From an uncultured Gammaproteobacteria bacterium (lineage in GTDB: Bacteria; Patescibacteriota; Microgenomatia; UBA1406; GWC2-37-13): 35,886 bases of DNA. The position numbers and the translations under genes are program-made. Below are positions 4,420-35,818 of the stretch, in pieces. Location: positions 1-35,886 of the forward strand of contig CAYZAZ010000005.1 of assembly GCA_964476545.1 (NCBI GenBank), in the 5' to 3' direction. The stretch's first letter is position 1. Each line of letters begins with the position of its first letter. The notes under the pieces are model-generated. The model did no database searches, had not been told where the DNA came from, and saw only the letters and a list, made by a program, of their open reading frames with translations.

Positions 4420-4436
4420 AAATTATAAATTCAGAT

Positions 4437-5834
4437 TTAAGATTTAACATGTAGATTTGACATTTGAGCTTTAAGTTTTGAGATAACAATATTGGCGTCA
4501 GCTTGCCCTCTCATCTCTCTCATCACCTGCCCGACTAAAAACATAATTGAATTTACCTTTCCTTTTTTATAATCCTCTACCACTTTTGGATTTTCCTTAA
4601 TTAACTGGTTAATTAAGGAATCCAGTCTCGCCACGTCAGTTTCCTTTGGTTGTAATGAATCCTTAGCTAACTTTATCAATTCTTTTTCAGATAACCTAAT
4701 TGAAATTTTTTTATTAATTATCACATTTACAAATTTTTCTGCAGACAATTTTTCTTTGAGCAAAACTTTAAACAGCTTGTCAATTTTTTCTGCTTCCTCG
4801 ACGGTTTCAAATATTAACTCGGTTAGCTTACGATTAACCTTATAATCTTTTTCCCAACGAATAAAAACTTCATTTAGAGTTTCTGGAACAGTAGATTTTA
4901 TTTCGTTTAACCACAGTTCATCAAACTTAATTGGTGGCAAATCCGGGTCTGGAAAATAACGATAGTCAGCCGCATTTTCCTTTGATCTTTGAACATAAGT
5001 AATATTTTTTTCCGCATTATAGCCCCGCGTCTCTTGATCAGGTAAATTGTTTTCGTCTAAAATTTTTGTTTGCCTGGCAATTTCATATTCAATACCTTTT
5101 TCTAAGTATCGAAATGAATTAATATTTTTAAGCTCAACTTTATATTTAGGTAATATGTCATCGCGAGGAGCGGTAGCGACGTGGCGATCTCCTTGAGATT
5201 GCTTCGCTTCCGCTCGCAATGACACCTTGGCCAAGGATATATTTGCTTCGAGTCTCATCCCCCCCTTCTCCATGTCACAATCTGAAATATCTAAATAACG
5301 AACAATTTGTCTCAATTTTTTCGCATATTCTTTTGCTTGAGCTGAAGAATATATTTCTGGCTCAGTGACAATTTCAACTAAAGGAACACTGGAACGATTA
5401 AAGTCAATTAAGCTCACGTCTTGACCATTTACTTGTTGATGAATTAATTTTCCAGTATCTTCTTCCAAATGAACGCGAGTTATACCAACTGGACCAAAAG
5501 ATGTCTCCACTTTTCCACCATAACAGAATGGTAAATCATACTGCGAAATCTGATAACCTTTAGGCAAATCAGGATAAAAATAATGTTTACGGTCAAATTT
5601 TGAAATTAAATTAATCTTGCAACCTAAAGCCAAACCTAATTTGATTGTCCACTCAATGGCTTTTTTATTGGCCACAGGTAATGCTCCGGGCATTCCCAAA
5701 CAAACTGGACAGGTATAGATATTTGGTTTTTCTGCGTGAAAAGGATCGTTTTTACAACCACAAAACATCTTCGAAGCTGTCTTTAACTCGACATGCACTT
5801 CCATGCCAATAATTGTTTGATATTTTTTATCCAT
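4437..5834 (-). CDS. gatB: Asp/Glu-tRNA amidotransferase subunit B, carrying an in-frame palindromic insertion
   Basis: 465 aa with GatB motifs (GMEVHVEL, CPVCLGMPGALP, ADYRYFPDPDLPP) and a C-terminal GatB/YqeY-like tail. Overlaps the gatA stop by 8 nt. The loop between ANISL and ELKNINSF is about 20 aa longer than I recall for B. subtilis GatB. Confidence 0.95.
   Translation of the reverse strand: MDKKYQTIIGMEVHVELKTASKMFCGCKNDPFHAEKPNIYTCPVCLGMPGALPVANKKAIEWTIKLGLALGCKINLISKFDRKHYFYPDLPKGYQISQYDLPFCYGGKVETSFGPVGITRVHLEEDTGKLIHQQVNGQDVSLIDFNRSSVPLVEIVTEPEIYSSAQAKEYAKKLRQIVRYLDISDCDMEKGGMRLEANISLAKVSLRAEAKQSQGDRHVATAPRDDILPKYKVELKNINSFRYLEKGIEYEIARQTKILDENNLPDQETRGYNAEKNITYVQRSKENAADYRYFPDPDLPPIKFDELWLNEIKSTVPETLNEVFIRWEKDYKVNRKLTELIFETVEEAEKIDKLFKVLLKEKLSAEKFVNVIINKKISIRLSEKELIKLAKDSLQPKETDVARLDSLINQLIKENPKVVEDYKKGKVNSIMFLVGQVMREMRGQADANIVISKLKAQMSNLHVKS
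5157..5223. repeat. GTCATTGCGAG-type palindromic element inside gatB, translated in frame
   Basis: Terminal inverted repeats GTCATCGCGAG (5157-5167) and CTCGCAATGAC (5213-5223). Central stem GCGATCTC-ctt-GAGATTGC. Encodes VSLRAEAKQSQGDRHVATAPRDD. Confidence 0.75.
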
Positions 5835-7568: not shown

Positions 7569-7637
7569 AACACATAGCGCGTAACATATAACTCAGAACT
7601 TTACCCTCCGATTCGGAGGGTTTATAACTTAGAACTA
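7569..7637 (+). repeat. Intergenic repeat element, copy 1 (CACRTAGC heptamers, CCCTCCG hairpin, TAACTTAGAAC)
   Basis: AACACATAGCGCGTAACATATAACTC...CCCTCCGattCGGAGGG...TTTATAACTTAGAACTA aligns with 14539-14618. Confidence 0.7.
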
Positions 7638-7662
7638 ATCACTAATCACTAATCACTAATAA
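7635..7662. repeat. Tandem heptamer array CTAATCA x3 plus CTAATAA
   Basis: Read directly. In phase with the preceding TTTATAA CTTAGAA heptamers. Confidence 0.75.
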
Positions 7663-9857: not shown

Positions 9858-9885
9858 ATCTTAAATCTCAAAACTTAAATGTCAA
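9858..9885 (-). promoter_or_regulatory. Promoter of the NUDIX gene (TTGACA-N16-TAAGAT), -10 box 8 nt from the ATG
   Basis: Minus-strand TTGACA is plus 9880-9885 and TAAGAT is plus 9858-9863. The ATG is at 9849. No SD. Confidence 0.55.
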
Positions 9886-9901
9886 AACCACATCTTAAAT
9901 C
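9858..9901. repeat. 44-nt heptamer-phased module, copy 2 (upstream of the NUDIX gene)
   Basis: ATCTTAA ATCTCAA AACTTAA ATGTCAA AACCACA TCTTAAA TC. 37 of 44 positions are identical to copy 1 by hand alignment. Confidence 0.65.
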
Positions 9902-9969
9902 TTTTTATCTCTGTTTTAAGATAAACAGTTTTTACATTTGGCTTTAACATTTAACATCTAACATTTGAG

Positions 9970-10788
9970 TTAAATCCGACTAATCATATTTGATCTTGCC
10001 TTATATTCCAAACTATCATCTAGTTTACTTAACTCTATCTTTTTTTTATATTTTATTTCCAGTGCTTTTTCAATCAGCCAATCGGCAATCTCCGGATTCT
10101 TTGGCAAAATCGGCCCGTGCAAATATGTCCCAATCGCATTTTTATATCTTATACCTTCGGTCCTATCCTCGCCATTATTCCCATATCCTTTTATAACACT
10201 AGCAAACGCTTGCGACTTATCTCCTAGATAAGTTCGTCCACCATGATTCTCAAAACCGACGAATTCAAATTTGTCATTGCGAAGCTGAGCGAAGTCGAAG
10301 CTGAAGCAATCCGATTGAGATTGCTTCGTCGTCCCATTATGATTTGGCTCCTCACAATAACATATAGGCTTAATCATCACATTCCCAATTAATCTTTTTT
10401 CTCCCACCTTTGAACTCTCTGTAAACAAGTCAAATAATCCTAAACCCTCTAATTTTTTTGATTCAGCCGTTAAATAATATTTTCCCATGAATTGATAAGC
10501 GCCACAAATAAATAAAGCCGGAATATTATTATTTATTAATTTTTTTATTTCTTCACCTTTTCCTGAAAATAAATCTTTATTCACAATCTCTTGTTGAGTG
10601 TCTTGCGCCCCGCCCATAAAAATTAAGTCAATATTTTGCAATTCATCAAGTTTAGATTGAACAGAAATCCTTTTTACTTCCACATCGATTCCCCGCCACT
10701 GGCATCTTTTTTTTAGAACAATCACATTGCCCCGGTCACCATACGTACTCATGAGATCAGGATAGAGCCAGGCTATATTCAATTTCAT
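9970..10788 (-). CDS. gatD: Lipid II isoglutaminyl synthase glutaminase subunit (CobQ-type GATase), carrying an in-frame palindromic insertion
   Basis: 272 aa. N-terminus LYPDLMSTYGDRGNV and VGFENHGGRTY are typical of GatD/CobQ-like amidotransferases. Lies 7 nt downstream of murT. There are about 25 extra residues between RLIGNVMI and VGFENH. Confidence 0.8.
   Translation of the reverse strand: MKLNIAWLYPDLMSTYGDRGNVIVLKKRCQWRGIDVEVKRISVQSKLDELQNIDLIFMGGAQDTQQEIVNKDLFSGKGEEIKKLINNNIPALFICGAYQFMGKYYLTAESKKLEGLGLFDLFTESSKVGEKRLIGNVMIKPICYCEEPNHNGTTKQSQSDCFSFDFAQLRNDKFEFVGFENHGGRTYLGDKSQAFASVIKGYGNNGEDRTEGIRYKNAIGTYLHGPILPKNPEIADWLIEKALEIKYKKKIELSKLDDSLEYKARSNMISRI
10273..10361. repeat. GTCATTGCGA-type palindromic element inside gatD, translated in frame
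   Basis: Termini GTCATTGCGAAG (10273-) and CTCACAATAAC (-10361). Perfect 9-bp core stem GAAGCAATC-cgattga-GATTGCTTC (10303-10327). Shares the 14-mer TTGAGATTGCTTCG with the gatB element. Confidence 0.75.
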
Positions 10789-10795
10789 ATTAATT

Positions 10796-12040
10796 TTAAA
10801 TTAATGATTTGCCAACTAAAATTTTCCTCACTTCCAACATTCCTGTATAGGTGGCTAAAATAACTATTTTTTCCTCTTTTTTTGTACTCGCAACAATCTC
10901 TTCCACAGCATCTTCTAAATCTTCTAAAATTTTAAATTTTTCTATTTCTCCATATTTCAATCGTATTCCCATATCTAGGCAACGATCCCCGGAAACTACA
11001 ATTTGGCCTTCTAATTGTTCAAACTCTACGTCCCAAATCCATGAGATATCTTTTCCGTCGGGTATGCGATCATTCAAAACCAAAAGTAAATGACGTTTGT
11101 CTTTTCCAAATATTTCATTCATAACCGCAATTGATTGATTAAATCCCGTTGGATTTTTGGAAAGTAATAAATAGATTTTTCTACCTTTATAGATAATTTC
11201 TTCTTGCCTACCAAAGGCAGGTTTGAACTGCTTTAAGGCAATAGCAATTTTTTCAAGCGGTATGTGTAAAATCTGATCTAAAAAAGTAAAAACTGCATTC
11301 GTATTATATTTATTATAAATTCCTTTTAAGGGGAGTTCTAGATTGTAATTAATAATCGTTGGATTCATAAATTTACATTTTAAACACTGATATTTTCCCA
11401 AATGTGAATAAGAGATTCCGCTATAAGTAAGCATGCTATTGCATTTTGGACAGTAGATTGAATCAACATCGTGGGGAATATCTTTAACTTGAGCTAAATC
11501 CTGACTTACACCAAAGTAGTAAACATTGGCTTTACAATTTTCGCCAAGATATGCAATTTGCGGATCATCGCCATTTAAAATTAAACTTGTATTCTTATCT
11601 AGAGTCTGAATACTCTTTCGCCAATTATTAGCAATTGTATTTACCTCACCATATCTATCTAATTGATCACGAAATAAATTTAATAAAATTAAAGTATGAG
11701 GTTTTAGTTGCTTTAGAGTTTGAGGTAAAGTATTTTCATCTATTTCAAAAGTGGCAAAATCATAAGTTATTTTTTTTGGAAAATTAACACTCTTAATTAT
11801 TGCCGAGGCCACGCCATTTAATAAATTTGCTCCTTCTTCATTTTGAAAAACAGTTTTCCCATCTGCTTCCAAAATAAATTTAATCAAAGTTGATGTGGTT
11901 GTCTTCCCATTTGTTCCCGCTATTAAAATAACTTTTGTATCAGACGTGGAAAAAAAATCCTTAATAAAATTTTTATTGAATCTCAAAGCAATCTCTCCCG
12001 GCCACGTCGAACCAGACCCTAGACTTAACAATCTAATCAA
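10796..12040 (-). CDS. murT: Lipid II isoglutaminyl synthase, Mur-ligase-family subunit
   Basis: 414 aa. P-loop GTNGKTTT, a Cys4 ribbon (CPKCNSML...CLKC) typical of MurT and a C-terminal DUF1727-like region. The start as listed is a TTG codon, and no in-frame ATG lies upstream before a stop. Confidence 0.85.
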   Translation of the reverse strand: MIRLLSLGSGSTWPGEIALRFNKNFIKDFFSTSDTKVILIAGTNGKTTTSTLIKFILEADGKTVFQNEEGANLLNGVASAIIKSVNFPKKITYDFATFEIDENTLPQTLKQLKPHTLILLNLFRDQLDRYGEVNTIANNWRKSIQTLDKNTSLILNGDDPQIAYLGENCKANVYYFGVSQDLAQVKDIPHDVDSIYCPKCNSMLTYSGISYSHLGKYQCLKCKFMNPTIINYNLELPLKGIYNKYNTNAVFTFLDQILHIPLEKIAIALKQFKPAFGRQEEIIYKGRKIYLLLSKNPTGFNQSIAVMNEIFGKDKRHLLLVLNDRIPDGKDISWIWDVEFEQLEGQIVVSGDRCLDMGIRLKYGEIEKFKILEDLEDAVEEIVASTKKEEKIVILATYTGMLEVRKILVGKSLI

Positions 12041-12086: not shown

Positions 12087-12139
12087 GAAAATTTAAAATT
12101 AAAAATTGATTAAAAATTAAAAATTAATAATTTAAAATT
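12087..12139. repeat. Tandem heptamer array NAAAATT (3 copies, GATT, 4 copies)
   Basis: GAAAATT TAAAATT AAAAATT gatt AAAAATT AAAAATT AATAATT TAAAATT, between the htpX stop and the murT start. Confidence 0.7.
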
Positions 12140-13031
12140 ACATTGCCCTCAATATCTTGATTCTCTCCTCAATCGGTGGGTGAGTGCTAAATAAATTCAC
12201 CAACCAAGAAGATTTACTTTTCGTTTTAAATGGATTAGAAATAAATAGGTGAGCCGTTGATGAGCTAACATTTCTCATTGGTGGAGAAGTACTAATTTTT
12301 TCTAAGGCACGAGCTAAACCTTCAGGATATCTAGTAATCAAAGACCCATCTGCATCGGCTAAATATTCCCGCTTTCTCGAAATCGCCAATTGAATTAACG
12401 TTGCCACAAGTGGTCCGATAATCAAAGCCACAAAAAATAAAACAATCATCAAAGGATTTTTTCCTCGATCTTCATCATTATTACGCCTGCCACCCCACCA
12501 CATACTTCTCATAATCCAGTCAGAAGCAATTGCCAAAGTCCCCACAAGAACAGCGACCACTGAAGAAATTAAAATATCATAATTTTTTACATGGGAAAGT
12601 TCGTGAGCAATTACCCCTTCAAGCTCGGTGCGATCAAGTATTTCAAGTAGACCGGTTGTTACACAAACAACTGCGTGCTTTGGATCTCGACCAGTCGCAA
12701 AAGCGTTCGGAGATGGGTCATTAATTACGTAAAGTTTCGGCATTGGTATTCCCGATGCGATTGCTAAATTTTCAGTAACTGTATAAAAATCAAAGAATTG
12801 TTTTTTATTCGCCGATTTGGCTCCTGTTGTAAAAAGAACAATTTTATCTGAGTAAAAATAACTTCCGGCAGTTGAAAAAAGAGAAAAATTAAATCCTAGG
12901 ATTAAATACTCAGTCGGAGAAGAATAATATTGTCCAACTATGTAAAAGAAACCAGAAATCACAAAAATAAATAGGCCAAAAATTAAAAAAGTCTTCAATC
13001 GATTAGAAGATATTTGAGAATATATGGACAT
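12138..13031 (-). CDS. htpX: M48-family zinc metalloprotease HtpX
   Basis: 297 aa with N-terminal TM helices and the HEXXH motif HELSHVKNYD. Shows the conserved lemA-htpX adjacency. Confidence 0.9.
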   Translation of the reverse strand: MSIYSQISSNRLKTFLIFGLFIFVISGFFYIVGQYYSSPTEYLILGFNFSLFSTAGSYFYSDKIVLFTTGAKSANKKQFFDFYTVTENLAIASGIPMPKLYVINDPSPNAFATGRDPKHAVVCVTTGLLEILDRTELEGVIAHELSHVKNYDILISSVVAVLVGTLAIASDWIMRSMWWGGRRNNDEDRGKNPLMIVLFFVALIIGPLVATLIQLAISRKREYLADADGSLITRYPEGLARALEKISTSPPMRNVSSSTAHLFISNPFKTKSKSSWLVNLFSTHPPIEERIKILRAM

Positions 13032-13041
13032 AATTGTCTAT

Positions 13042-13096
13042 AAAACACGTAACACGTAGCACGTAACATAGAACTAAGAACTTTATAACTTAAAAC
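13042..13096 (+). repeat. Hairpin-less relative of the same intergenic element
   Basis: Heptamer string GTAACAC GTAGCAC GTAACAT AGAACTA AGAACTT TATAACT TAAAACT between lemA and htpX. Confidence 0.55.
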
Positions 13097-14510: not shown

Positions 14511-14538
14511 ACCACATTACATATAACACGTTGCACGT

Positions 14539-14618
14539 AACACATAGCACGTAGCATATAACTCTAATTTTCAGTTTAAAATTTACCCTCCGACTCGGAG
14601 GGTTTTAACTTAGTACTA
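14539..14618 (+). repeat. Intergenic repeat element, copy 2
   Basis: AACACATAGCACGTAGCATATAACTC (24 of 26 identical to copy 1), hairpin 16 of 17 identical, then TTTTAACTTAGTACTA. Confidence 0.7.
14586..14606 (+). terminator. Rho-independent terminator after the LysM gene
   Basis: CCCTCCG-act-CGGAGGG hairpin followed by TTTT. Confidence 0.6.
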
Positions 14619-14684: not shown

Positions 14685-14756
14685 GCGGTGGTAGTTCAGC
14701 GGTAGAATGTCTCCTTCCCAAGGAGAAGGTCGCCGGTTCAAATCCGGTCCACCGCT
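14685..14756 (+). tRNA. tRNA-Gly (anticodon CCC)
   Basis: Hand-folded cloverleaf: acceptor GCGGTGG/CCACCGC, D arm GTTC-AGCGGTA-GAAT, anticodon arm TCTCC-TTCCCAA-GGAGA, T arm GCCGG-TTCAAAT-CCGGT, discriminator T. CCA is not encoded. Confidence 0.9.
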
Positions 14757-15695: not shown

Positions 15696-16523
15696 ATGTT
15701 ATCTCGCAAAATTGCCCTTTTTCAAGGTAACCGAATTCGTCGTTTATGGAACGATAAAGAAGAAAAATGGTATTTTTCTATTATAGATGTTGTAGCAGTA
15801 TTAACAGCGAGCACAAATCCCCAAGTTTATTGGAGAGTTCTTAAAAAAAGATTAATCGACGAAGGTTCAAATGAAACCGTTACAAAATGTAACGGGTTGA
15901 AAATGTTAGCCACTGACGGAAAAATGAGATTGACTGATGTCGCTGATACAGAAGTTCTGCTCCGAATAATTCAAAGTATCCCTTCACCAAACGCAGAACC
16001 ACTTAAACTTTGGCTAGCACGAGTTGGCTATGAACGACTTGAAGAAACAGCAGATCCAGAACTGACCATCAATCGTGCACTAAAAACATATTTACAAAAA
16101 GGTTACAGCCGAGAATGGATAAATCAACGTTTAAAAAGTATTGAAGTCCGCAAGGAATTAACCAATGAATGGGAAAATCGTGGAGTTAAAGAAGGATTGG
16201 AATTTGCGATTTTAACAAATGAAATAACTGAAGCTTGGGCTGAACTAACAACCAAACAATATAAACAGCTCAAAGGTTTAAAAAAACAAAACCTGAGAGA
16301 TAATATGACAAATTTGGAGTTGGTACTAAATATGCTTGCAGAAACAGCTACAACTGAAATCTCACAGAAAAAACAACCTAAAAACTTCCCCGAAAATAAA
16401 AAAGTAGCACGTGAGGGAGGAACCGTTGCTGGAAATGCCCGAAAAGAAATTGAATCAAAAACTAAAAAAAAAGTAATCACCAGTAAGAACGCAAAAGATT
16501 TAAAATTACTGAAGCAAAAATAA
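15696..16523 (+). CDS. Bro-N domain protein (phage-antirepressor / DinD-like)
   Basis: 275 aa. N-terminus (FQGNRIRRLWNDKEEKWYFSIIDVVAVLT ... NAEPLKLWLARVGYERLEE) matches my recollection of Bro-N family proteins. Lys-rich C-terminal tail. Confidence 0.7.
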   Translation: MLSRKIALFQGNRIRRLWNDKEEKWYFSIIDVVAVLTASTNPQVYWRVLKKRLIDEGSNETVTKCNGLKMLATDGKMRLTDVADTEVLLRIIQSIPSPNAEPLKLWLARVGYERLEETADPELTINRALKTYLQKGYSREWINQRLKSIEVRKELTNEWENRGVKEGLEFAILTNEITEAWAELTTKQYKQLKGLKKQNLRDNMTNLELVLNMLAETATTEISQKKQPKNFPENKKVAREGGTVAGNARKEIESKTKKKVITSKNAKDLKLLKQK

Positions 16524-16628: not shown

Positions 16629-16702
16629 GCCTTTTTAGCTCAACGGTAGAGCAGCGGTATCGTAAACCGTAGATGTCAGTTCAATTCTGACAAAAGGCTC
16701 CA
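16629..16702 (+). tRNA. tRNA-Thr (anticodon CGT), CCA encoded
   Basis: Hand-folded cloverleaf: acceptor GCCTTTT/AAAAGGC, D arm GCTC-AACGGTA-GAGC, anticodon arm GCGGT-ATCGTAA-ACCGT, T arm GTCAG-TTCAATT-CTGAC, discriminator T, CCA at 16700-16702. Confidence 0.9.
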
Positions 16703-35718: not shown

Positions 35719-35818
35719 GTCATTCTGGCAAACGATGAGTGCTGAAGTGCGTCCAGAATCGTCGTCTAAACAACGATCCTGGATAATCCTTCGATAAACT
35801 CAGGATTACCAGGATGAC
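35719..35818. repeat. Intergenic double-hairpin palindromic element with GTCATTCTGG / CCAGGATGAC termini
   Basis: Terminal inverted repeat matches 9 of 10. Inner pairings are ATTCTGG...CCAGAAT and ATCCTGGATAATCC...GGATTACCAGGAT. Confidence 0.6.

Follow-up and report, generated by a model that had tools for sequence, protein, structure and literature searches.

How does a palindrome come to be read through, in frame, in an essential gene? The question is raised by a stretch of 35,886 nucleotides (contig CAYZAZ010000005.1, called the window, or 36-kb window, below) from a bacterium of the candidate phyla radiation (CPR; Patescibacteria), in which gatB carries an imperfect palindrome of ~67 nt. 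We find that this palindrome is made of two hairpin units related to the repeats that accompany the Ssn nucleases. It belongs to known kinds of element, namely Ssn-related repeats and protein-coding palindromic repeats; what appear to be undescribed are a widespread hairpin variant missed by the published motif pattern, its location in essential CPR genes, and the recurrent hits in the same loops. The host gene, identified as an open reading frame (ORF), and the parts of the palindrome are as follows.

4437 to 5834, minus strand: gatB, the host gene, 465 amino acids (ORF, Pfam, NCBIfam).
5157 to 5223, no strand assigned: 67-nt imperfect palindrome, tail-to-tail doublet of two Ssn-related hairpin units, GatB residues 204-226.
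5197 to 5223, minus strand: 5' unit in gene sense, a canonical member of the repeat family called family A here, 27 nt, GTC-ATTGC-GAGCGGAAGCGAA-GCAAT-C (profile search, unit finder).
5190 to 5196, no strand assigned: 7-nt spacer between the units, the place of the Ssn gene in gene-bearing copies (sequence).
5157 to 5189, plus strand (antisense to gatB): 3' unit, a variant, 33 nt, GTC-ATCGC-GAGGAGCGGTAGCGACGTG-GCGAT-C (unit finder).

The gatB product matches the NCBIfam GatB equivalogs and, in Pfam, both GatB_N (E=2e-106, 302 residues spanning 275 profile positions) and GatB_Yqey. A preliminary description of the locus had proposed that an imperfect palindrome is read through within this gene, which proved correct. 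In gene sense the palindrome begins at the third base of codon 204, ends with codon 226 and reads as VSLRAEAKQSQGDRHVATAPRDD; its termini are GTCATCGCGAG and CTCGCAATGAC in the window sequence, which contains the terminal 11-mer three times versus 0.21 times expected. The RNA of positions 5140-5240 folds at a predicted -39.3 kcal/mol, as compared to -22.9 ± 3.4 for shuffled sequences (z = -4.8, with none of 200 shuffles matching it), and the local GC content is 57% within surroundings of ~35%. In gene orientation one of its three frames is closed by TGA (CGA TGA C) and two are open, the frame of gatB being one of the latter. The identical palindrome is present in two independent assemblies whose DNA is ~96% identical to the window (L121, from JGI, and L122, from ENA), and an assembly artefact is thus excluded.

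The GatB product was compared with 120 orthologues of 62-98% identity, among which those with names are Roizmanbacteria, Microgenomates or Patescibacteria. The palindrome is absent from 118 of the 120, its carriers being the query and a single relative of 98% identity. Approximately 30 of the 120 have at this place the six-residue loop QKKGET, set between the invariant segments RLEANISL and LPNYKVELKNINSF, and the empty site can be read at the DNA level in locus L127 as CAGAAAAAAGGAGAGACAGAA. The span from ANISL to ELKNINSF, which had been put at 32 residues here against ~12 elsewhere, indeed measures 32 residues, versus 13 in the shortest orthologues and ~12 in Aquifex GatB, and the proposal that the palindrome explains the added residues holds as well. 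Where the palindrome is missing, orthologues show either a short loop or an insert unrelated to it, and no loop of equal length and similar sequence was seen among them. Judged by presence and absence at orthologous sites, where filled and empty copies give the polarity of the change, the gatB palindrome is a real insertion.

The insertion site aligns to a short inter-strand loop in the GatB structures of Aquifex (3H0L, where the aligned loop begins after INVSI) and Thermotoga (3AL0), and the length of this loop varies from 6 to 38 residues across the orthologues. In an AlphaFold2 model calculated with 72 orthologues, the insert lies between two confidently predicted strands (193-203 and 233-238), and residues 209-226 have predicted local distance difference test (pLDDT) values below 50. 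As to whether the peptide is tolerated or the RNA processed, the variation in loop length and the low pLDDT of the model lean towards a tolerated loop.

The basic unit of the element is the single arm, since arms fold on themselves (ATTGC with GCAAT), occur alone and occur in tandem (L007); the palindrome is a tail-to-tail doublet of such arms. Both gatB units are hairpins within the 20-50 nt range, with a 5-bp basal stem around a mini-hairpin, and in both the stem is still preceded by GTC and followed by C. The unit at 5197-5223 scores 28.2 bits (E=3e-7) against an nhmmer profile of 124 family A units. In its partner at 5157-5189 the basal stem is altered on both sides, from ATTGC/GCAAT to ATCGC/GCGAT, and this variant, with ..GCCACG.., also occurs in a gammaproteobacterium (L020) and in L097. 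The general plan of family A is [Y]GTCATTGCGAG - variable mini-hairpin - CGAAGCAATC - loop - GATTGCTTCG - variable - CTCGCAATGAC[R]. We note that in a Chloroflexus metagenome-assembled genome (MAG; L007, positions 1372-1506) three single family A units follow one another as direct repeats, with a period of 51 nt and identical spacers, an arrangement left unexplained by the doublet model.

The family extends far beyond the CPR. Among species-representative genomes, at least 120 loci carry its signature, 28 of them as complete doublets, and the hosts include Alpha-, Gamma- and Deltaproteobacteria, Bacteroidota, Chloroflexota, Cyanobacteria, Planctomycetota, Zixibacteria and Patescibacteria. By our own estimate, ~34 matches to the gapped pattern are expected by chance in 596 Gb; paired inverted matches, unlike single ones, cannot be chance. 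The arms of the gatB palindrome are up to ~90% identical to copies from unrelated phyla, the 3' arm matching one in Chloroflexi (L040). Where plasmids and chromids are annotated, the element lies between genes and bears no annotation itself; a single replicon of Novosphingobium resinovorum carries it at 40 or more places with nothing annotated beneath them. Open-frame length proved unsuitable for recognising intragenic copies across phyla, because GC-rich genomes yield long spurious frames. In one case, a 2.4-kb contig of a Patescibacteria MAG (L050, positions 556-1838), a 308-aa Mutator-family transposase (PF00872, E=1e-7) stands between two complete family A doublets; this could be coincidence, or an insertion sequence (IS) landing in, or carrying, family A repeats.

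Searches for an existing description returned little. At gathering thresholds Rfam finds two tRNAs in the window and nothing else, and a relaxed search of positions 5100-5280 gave only chance matches to small nucleolar and long non-coding RNAs; a Flavo-1 match in locus L208 was set aside as an unrelated small RNA located 1.9 kb from the element. Literature string searches with the DNA and peptide motifs of the element returned only primer coincidences, and literature on CPR or Patescibacteria combined with repeats yielded nothing relevant.

The link to a partner gene comes from copies in which the two units are set apart. Ssn proteins make up a family (cd10448) whose members consist of a single GIY-YIG domain (Chenal et al., Nat Commun 2025, PMC11893778). 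The 94-aa SsnA of N. meningitidis binds the NTS hairpin, CGTCATTCCCGCGMAVGCGGGAATCYRG, solely as single-stranded DNA (ssDNA) and makes its cut a short way upstream, at a distance of a few nucleotides; for binding, the C directly 3' of the palindrome matters most, and for cleavage the three nucleotides 5' of the palindrome (GTC) (PMC11893778). Ssn-related motifs (SRM) are found near 71% of Ssn homologues, Rickettsia is among the SRM-rich genomes, Ssn limits transformation in Neisseria, and NTS is intragenic in 2% of cases in N. meningitidis (PMC11893778). The NTS-ssnA-NTS layout has been called IS-like, with mobility as a hypothesis (PMC11893778).

The nuclease at family A units came to light only through ORFs bracketed by two units. 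In a Planctomycetota MAG (L066), a GIY-YIG ORF of 96 aa (PF01541, E=6e-18) lies exactly between two arms, 11 nt past the left one and 4 nt ahead of the right one. We picked 80 metagenomic loci solely by similarity to the L066 protein and located termini in them with at most one mismatch. A left terminus is present within 200 nt upstream of the GIY-YIG gene in 59 of 70 loci and a right terminus within 200 nt downstream in 64 of 70, with both at the gene in 47 of 60. Per kb, there are 10.3 termini within 200 nt of the gene and 0.36 at distances of at least 400 nt, a 29-fold difference. The genes that the units flank on both sides, in many phyla, code for a single GIY-YIG domain of ~95 aa and would be of the cd10448 type. 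Between the L066-type protein and the product of a gonococcal gene flanked by canonical NTS units, identity is 44% (E=9e-17), and the 8000 or more relatives collected with a single profile include the 94-aa protein of N. meningitidis. On the strength of these similarities, the GIY-YIG protein between family A arms is an Ssn homologue. Other Ssn homologues have hairpins of their own, that of Planktothrix being GTCATTCTGAG-TGAAA-CGAAGAATCTC and that of Novosphingobium GTCGCCCCGTG...CACGGGGC. In L066 the Ssn gene and its two family A arms (4960-5480) stand between pheS and pheT; a duplicated 5' fragment of pheT (..FDLTPEELAQKLTFLGLEVAALSA..), terminated by a stop, lies upstream of the element and the full pheT begins downstream, which looks like an insertion footprint that restores the target gene.

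The gatB palindrome is not alone in the window, in which two further doublets were located.

9970 to 10788, minus strand: gatD, lipid II isoglutaminyl synthase glutaminase subunit, 272 amino acids (Pfam GATase_3, NCBIfam GatD).
10273 to 10361, no strand assigned: second family A doublet, 89 nt, in frame in gatD (alignment with the gatB copy, nhmmer, unit finder).
10796 to 12040: murT, the partner of gatD (Pfam MurT_C).
35719 to 35818, no strand assigned: third tail-to-tail doublet, intergenic, GTC-ATTCT..AGAAT-C / GTC-ATCCT..AGGAT-C (unit finder).

The NCBIfam GatD models match the gatD product in two separate stretches, and residues 136 and 137 of S. aureus GatD are contiguous where the window protein has ~30 additional residues. 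The copy in gatD reads as ..CYCEEPNHNGTTKQSQSDCFSFDFAQLRNDK.. and ends in ...LRNDK. The preliminary description had associated RNDK-type repeats with spurious peptides of CPR metagenome annotations; both this ending and the wide occurrence of the signature, in Patescibacteria among other phyla, agree with it. One unit of the gatD doublet is intact and the other has decayed (GTT-ATTGT..), the unit finder calling positions 10273-10311. The third doublet, through which no open frame runs and which is followed by a terminator-like hairpin, suggests that the genome holds several Ssn-type hairpin variants; a sensitive nhmmer profile search of the window found no family A copies beyond those in gatB and gatD. 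With a generic definition of the unit (GTC and a 5-nt stem, then the complementary stem and C), the window contains five units and two strict tail-to-tail doublets, as compared to 0.59 units and no doublets in dinucleotide shuffles, none of 200 of which reached the observed values. Altogether, there are three doublets in the window.

The loops of GatB and GatD that received these insertions have been filled by other repeats in related genomes. At the gatB loop, the following were found.

L123 and L125: NTS-type doublets (AVIPAKAGIQ...LRGDD) that match the published SRM pattern.
L130: a CACCCTAAGGGTGTC palindrome with the peptide HPKGV...HPKGV and a fold z of -7.5.
L128 and L129: heptamer arrays of AAGTCAA and AATGACA.
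L129, ~10610-10700: a CTGCC..GGCAGG mini-palindrome, CCTGCCTTGCCGGCAGGCAGG, with the peptide PALPAGRQ, nested in AATGACA heptamers.

In GatD, 33 of 121 sequences have a loop of only ~7 residues at the insertion site, and in others it is as long as 40. Two further family A insertions are present in the GatD loops of proteins P0215 and P0231, which are 56-57% identical to the window protein, and relatives that are closer to it lack the insertion. The comparison of orthologues thus marks the GatB and GatD loops as insertion hotspots for differing repeat types. Survivorship at permissive loops and targeting of pre-existing repeats could either of them give this pattern, and the data are compatible with both. 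In the flanks of Microgenomates gatB loci, every unit that was collected incidentally lies within a gene and in frame, and a further such unit occurs in the CPR locus L015; they are canonical NTS-type units, and their location contrasts with the 2% of NTS that is intragenic in N. meningitidis.

L129, 4241-4264: one unit in an FAD/NAD oxidoreductase.
L123, 4967-4990: one unit in a membrane protein.
L127, 6211-6234: one unit in a membrane protein.
L125, 20975-21058: units in an N-terminal region.
L015, 3535-3559: one unit in an ORF of 1318 codons.

Tandem heptamer arrays were also observed in the window itself, at 1133-1156, 4433-4484, 7634-7660, 9860-9888, 9943-9966, 13044-13068 and 14513-14562. 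Their heptamers (CTAATCA, AGATTTA, ACTAATC, TTTAACA, AACACGT, CACGTAG) concentrate at the 3' ends of genes, and the array at 4433-4484 codes for the final ~16 residues of GatB (..KLKAQMSNLHVKS*). Similar heptamers (AAGTCAA, AATGACA, GTTCACA) fill GatB and GatD loops in orthologues. A terminator-like hairpin, ACCCTCCGAnTCGGAGGGT, is repeated at 7597-7623 and 14579-14605 with CACGTAA-type heptamers before it (families D1 and D20 of the repeat search).

Taken together, these observations make it likely, in our view, that the gatB palindrome is a gene-less Ssn-related doublet that was inserted, presumably mobilised by an Ssn nuclease, and tolerated as a disordered loop. We file it as a gene-less doublet of an Ssn-related variant because GTC and C are kept and because of the association with Ssn genes. 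The doublet would have entered gatB in a recent ancestor of the Roizmanbacteria lineage, the movement presumably being effected by an Ssn nuclease acting in trans on ssDNA, followed by host repair or ligation. Its survival in gatB can be attributed to a tolerant beta-hairpin loop (6 to 38 residues), to two stop-free frames and to a net change that preserves the frame. The insert is probably transcribed and translated as a 23-residue extension of the loop, predicted to be disordered and without a required function, and would be neutral. The same process would have acted in gatD, and other unit variants would have entered the same two loops in related genomes.

Several points weigh against this account. 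The units of gatB and the consensus units of family A fail the published SRM pattern, HGTCWYN(0-2)YYVSBRHN(0-5)WNVSBRGN(0-2)RNCYNB, which has no match in the window; control NTS sequences do match, and so do the gatB-loop units of L123 and L125. The degenerate pattern was built by hand from 29 genomes (PMC11893778), so that the mismatch of family A limits the pattern more than it limits the relationship. No Ssn homologue was found in the 36-kb window by tblastn and profile search, and ~200 kb of CPR loci yielded only a truncated GIY-YIG ORF in L015, a mere hint; the host may be without an Ssn nuclease. Clustering of the ORFs near 120 copies revealed no recurrent transposase or mobile-element family, and only housekeeping genes (ABC ATPases, dehydrogenases, IF2). 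No target-site duplication was seen beside the copies examined, which show only the Y...R extension of the palindrome. Published Ssn proteins only cut ssDNA, and transposition or copying has been shown for none (PMC11893778), nor has any step of Ssn-dependent movement been demonstrated for any member of the family. Finally, gatB differs at 3.4% of positions between the window and the strains L121 and L122, and none of the 47 differences falls inside the element, which is not significant (P=0.10) and therefore establishes neither constraint on the element nor its neutrality.

One alternative is that the insert is kept for a function of its own, either as a loop extension (for instance a transamidosome contact) or as an mRNA hairpin that tunes gatCAB through RNase III or ribosome pausing. 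An element unchanged between strains, a strong predicted RNA hairpin (-39 kcal/mol) and the presence of some insert at the GatB site in many orthologues would fit such a role. The absence of substitutions does not reach significance, however, the peptide is predicted to be disordered, and the same repeat type is also present within gatD, between genes and in members of other phyla; moreover, orthologues with an unrelated insert or none imply that no particular peptide or hairpin is required. We consider a function of its own to be improbable.

A broader proposal goes beyond the doublet in gatB, and we offer it as a conjecture that we would not yet favour. Ssn-type doublets may be active mobile DNA which, in CPR bacteria, is inserted or preferentially retained in the surface-loop DNA of conserved enzymes; elements could replace one another and nest, also within heptamer arrays, leaving a few hypervariable loops per protein. 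Under this proposal, the filled and empty sites of gatB and gatD would count as the first footprints of Ssn-dependent mobility, cuts made by Ssn in ssDNA just outside the units would set the ends of the element, and family A would represent a large, cross-phylum pairing of Ssn and hairpin that the pattern missed.

The GC-rich 'spurious peptides' (…KQSQ…, …RNDK) of CPR and other metagenomes are explained as translated hairpin repeats tied to Ssn nucleases. The Ssn family is extended by an abundant hairpin variant that occurs in many phyla and escapes the published pattern, and its reach now includes Patescibacteria. The filled and empty sites in gatB and gatD, with differing variants per site, constitute comparative evidence for movement of doublets, on which the Ssn paper, discussing the IS-like NTS-ssnA-NTS, only speculated (PMC11893778). 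In small, gene-dense genomes such elements land in essential genes at permissive loops, with consequences for gene calling, for domain models, for orthologue alignments and for any attempt to use the loops in engineering.

Two other genes of the window deserve mention. The M48 peptidase at 12138-13031 aligns 213 residues with 176 Pfam profile positions, and its ~37 additional residues could be another repeat-derived insertion. A Bro-N domain protein (15696-16523) is located between the tRNA genes at 14685-14756 and 16629-16699 and may be the remnant of a phage or other mobile element.

Among known systems, the closest architectural analogue of family A is that of repetitive extragenic palindromic (REP) sequences, their inverted doublets (REPINs) and the REP-associated tyrosine transposases (RAYTs). 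Both involve short imperfect hairpins with a conserved 5' motif, present as singlets and inverted doublets, and in both the copies are non-autonomous and presumably rely on an ssDNA-acting enzyme, encoded by a single-copy gene with the repeats on its flanks. One could thus propose that the gatB palindrome is itself a REP/REPIN-type element mobilised by a RAYT, an HUH Y1 tyrosine transposase. Imperfect hairpins of 27-33 nt with a conserved 5' GTC(A), as singles and inverted doublets, and numerous, mostly extragenic copies outside the CPR, are in line with this proposal. However, the gene between or beside family A arms codes for a GIY-YIG nuclease rather than a Y1 transposase, no transposase family recurs near the 120 copies, and the 5' motif is GTCA, as opposed to the GTAG described for RAYT-associated REP sequences. 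REPINs are described as lineage-specific and extragenic, whereas family A units are near-identical across phyla and, in the CPR, often intragenic. We therefore regard a RAYT-driven origin as very improbable.

The preliminary description had likened the insert to Rickettsia palindromic elements (RPEs), which are palindromic repeats of ~150 bp found in frame within conserved genes (review PMC10969869). The likeness in behaviour stands: as in RPEs (Ogata et al. 2000) and Wolbachia palindromic elements (WPEs), in-frame palindromes add a peptide to unrelated housekeeping enzymes, at seemingly permissive sites and in hosts with small genomes. Membership in the family, or direct kinship with it, can hardly be entertained, even though Rickettsia is SRM-rich. 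At E values up to 10, the NCBIfam RPE and WPE models match neither the gatB and gatD inserts nor, in any frame, the consensus peptides of family A; the elements here measure 67-89 nt (67 nt in gatB) against ~150 bp and consist of two Ssn-type units each, and the host is a CPR bacterium. In addition, the same loops are here struck repeatedly by several repeat types across lineages; no such recurrence is reported for RPEs in the review (PMC10969869), for which no systematic search was made. One WPE model, TIGR02697, matches the NTS-type peptide LLSFPRRRKSKLNNWIPASAGMT of L123 at E=0.036, below its cut-off, a hint that at least the Wolbachia elements may be translated Ssn-type units.

A local origin, by template switching or inverted duplication in a loop whose orthologues are rich in slippage-prone heptamer arrays, or else an assembly chimera, is already contradicted by arms up to ~90% identical to copies in unrelated phyla such as that of L040, by 57% GC within a 35% GC context and by the agreement of three independent assemblies, and deserves next to no credence.

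Classical miniature inverted-repeat transposable elements (Correia, ERIC, Nezha) are likewise small, gene-less inverted repeats that can give rise to in-frame fusions (PMC10969869). They differ in that family A arms are structured hairpin units and not simple terminal inverted repeats; moreover, neither a target-site duplication nor a DDE transposase partner came to light here.

The system to which we assign the gatB palindrome, the SRM/NTS repeats (NTS/dRS3 in Neisseria), differs from the copies described here in four respects. The family A stem, ATTGC..GCAAT around a variable mini-hairpin, fails the published pattern; copies here lie in frame inside essential genes, whereas NTS is rarely intragenic; the host is a CPR bacterium, a group unmentioned in the main text of PMC11893778; and no cognate Ssn gene was seen in the window. 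What the two share is the layout: hairpins of 20-50 nt with GTC on the 5' side and C on the 3' side, inverted units on either side of a gene for a single-domain GIY-YIG protein of ~95 aa, and many gene-less copies over many phyla, with a hairpin variant for each nuclease clade. Canonical NTS-type units, moreover, occupy the very same gatB loop in L123 and L125.

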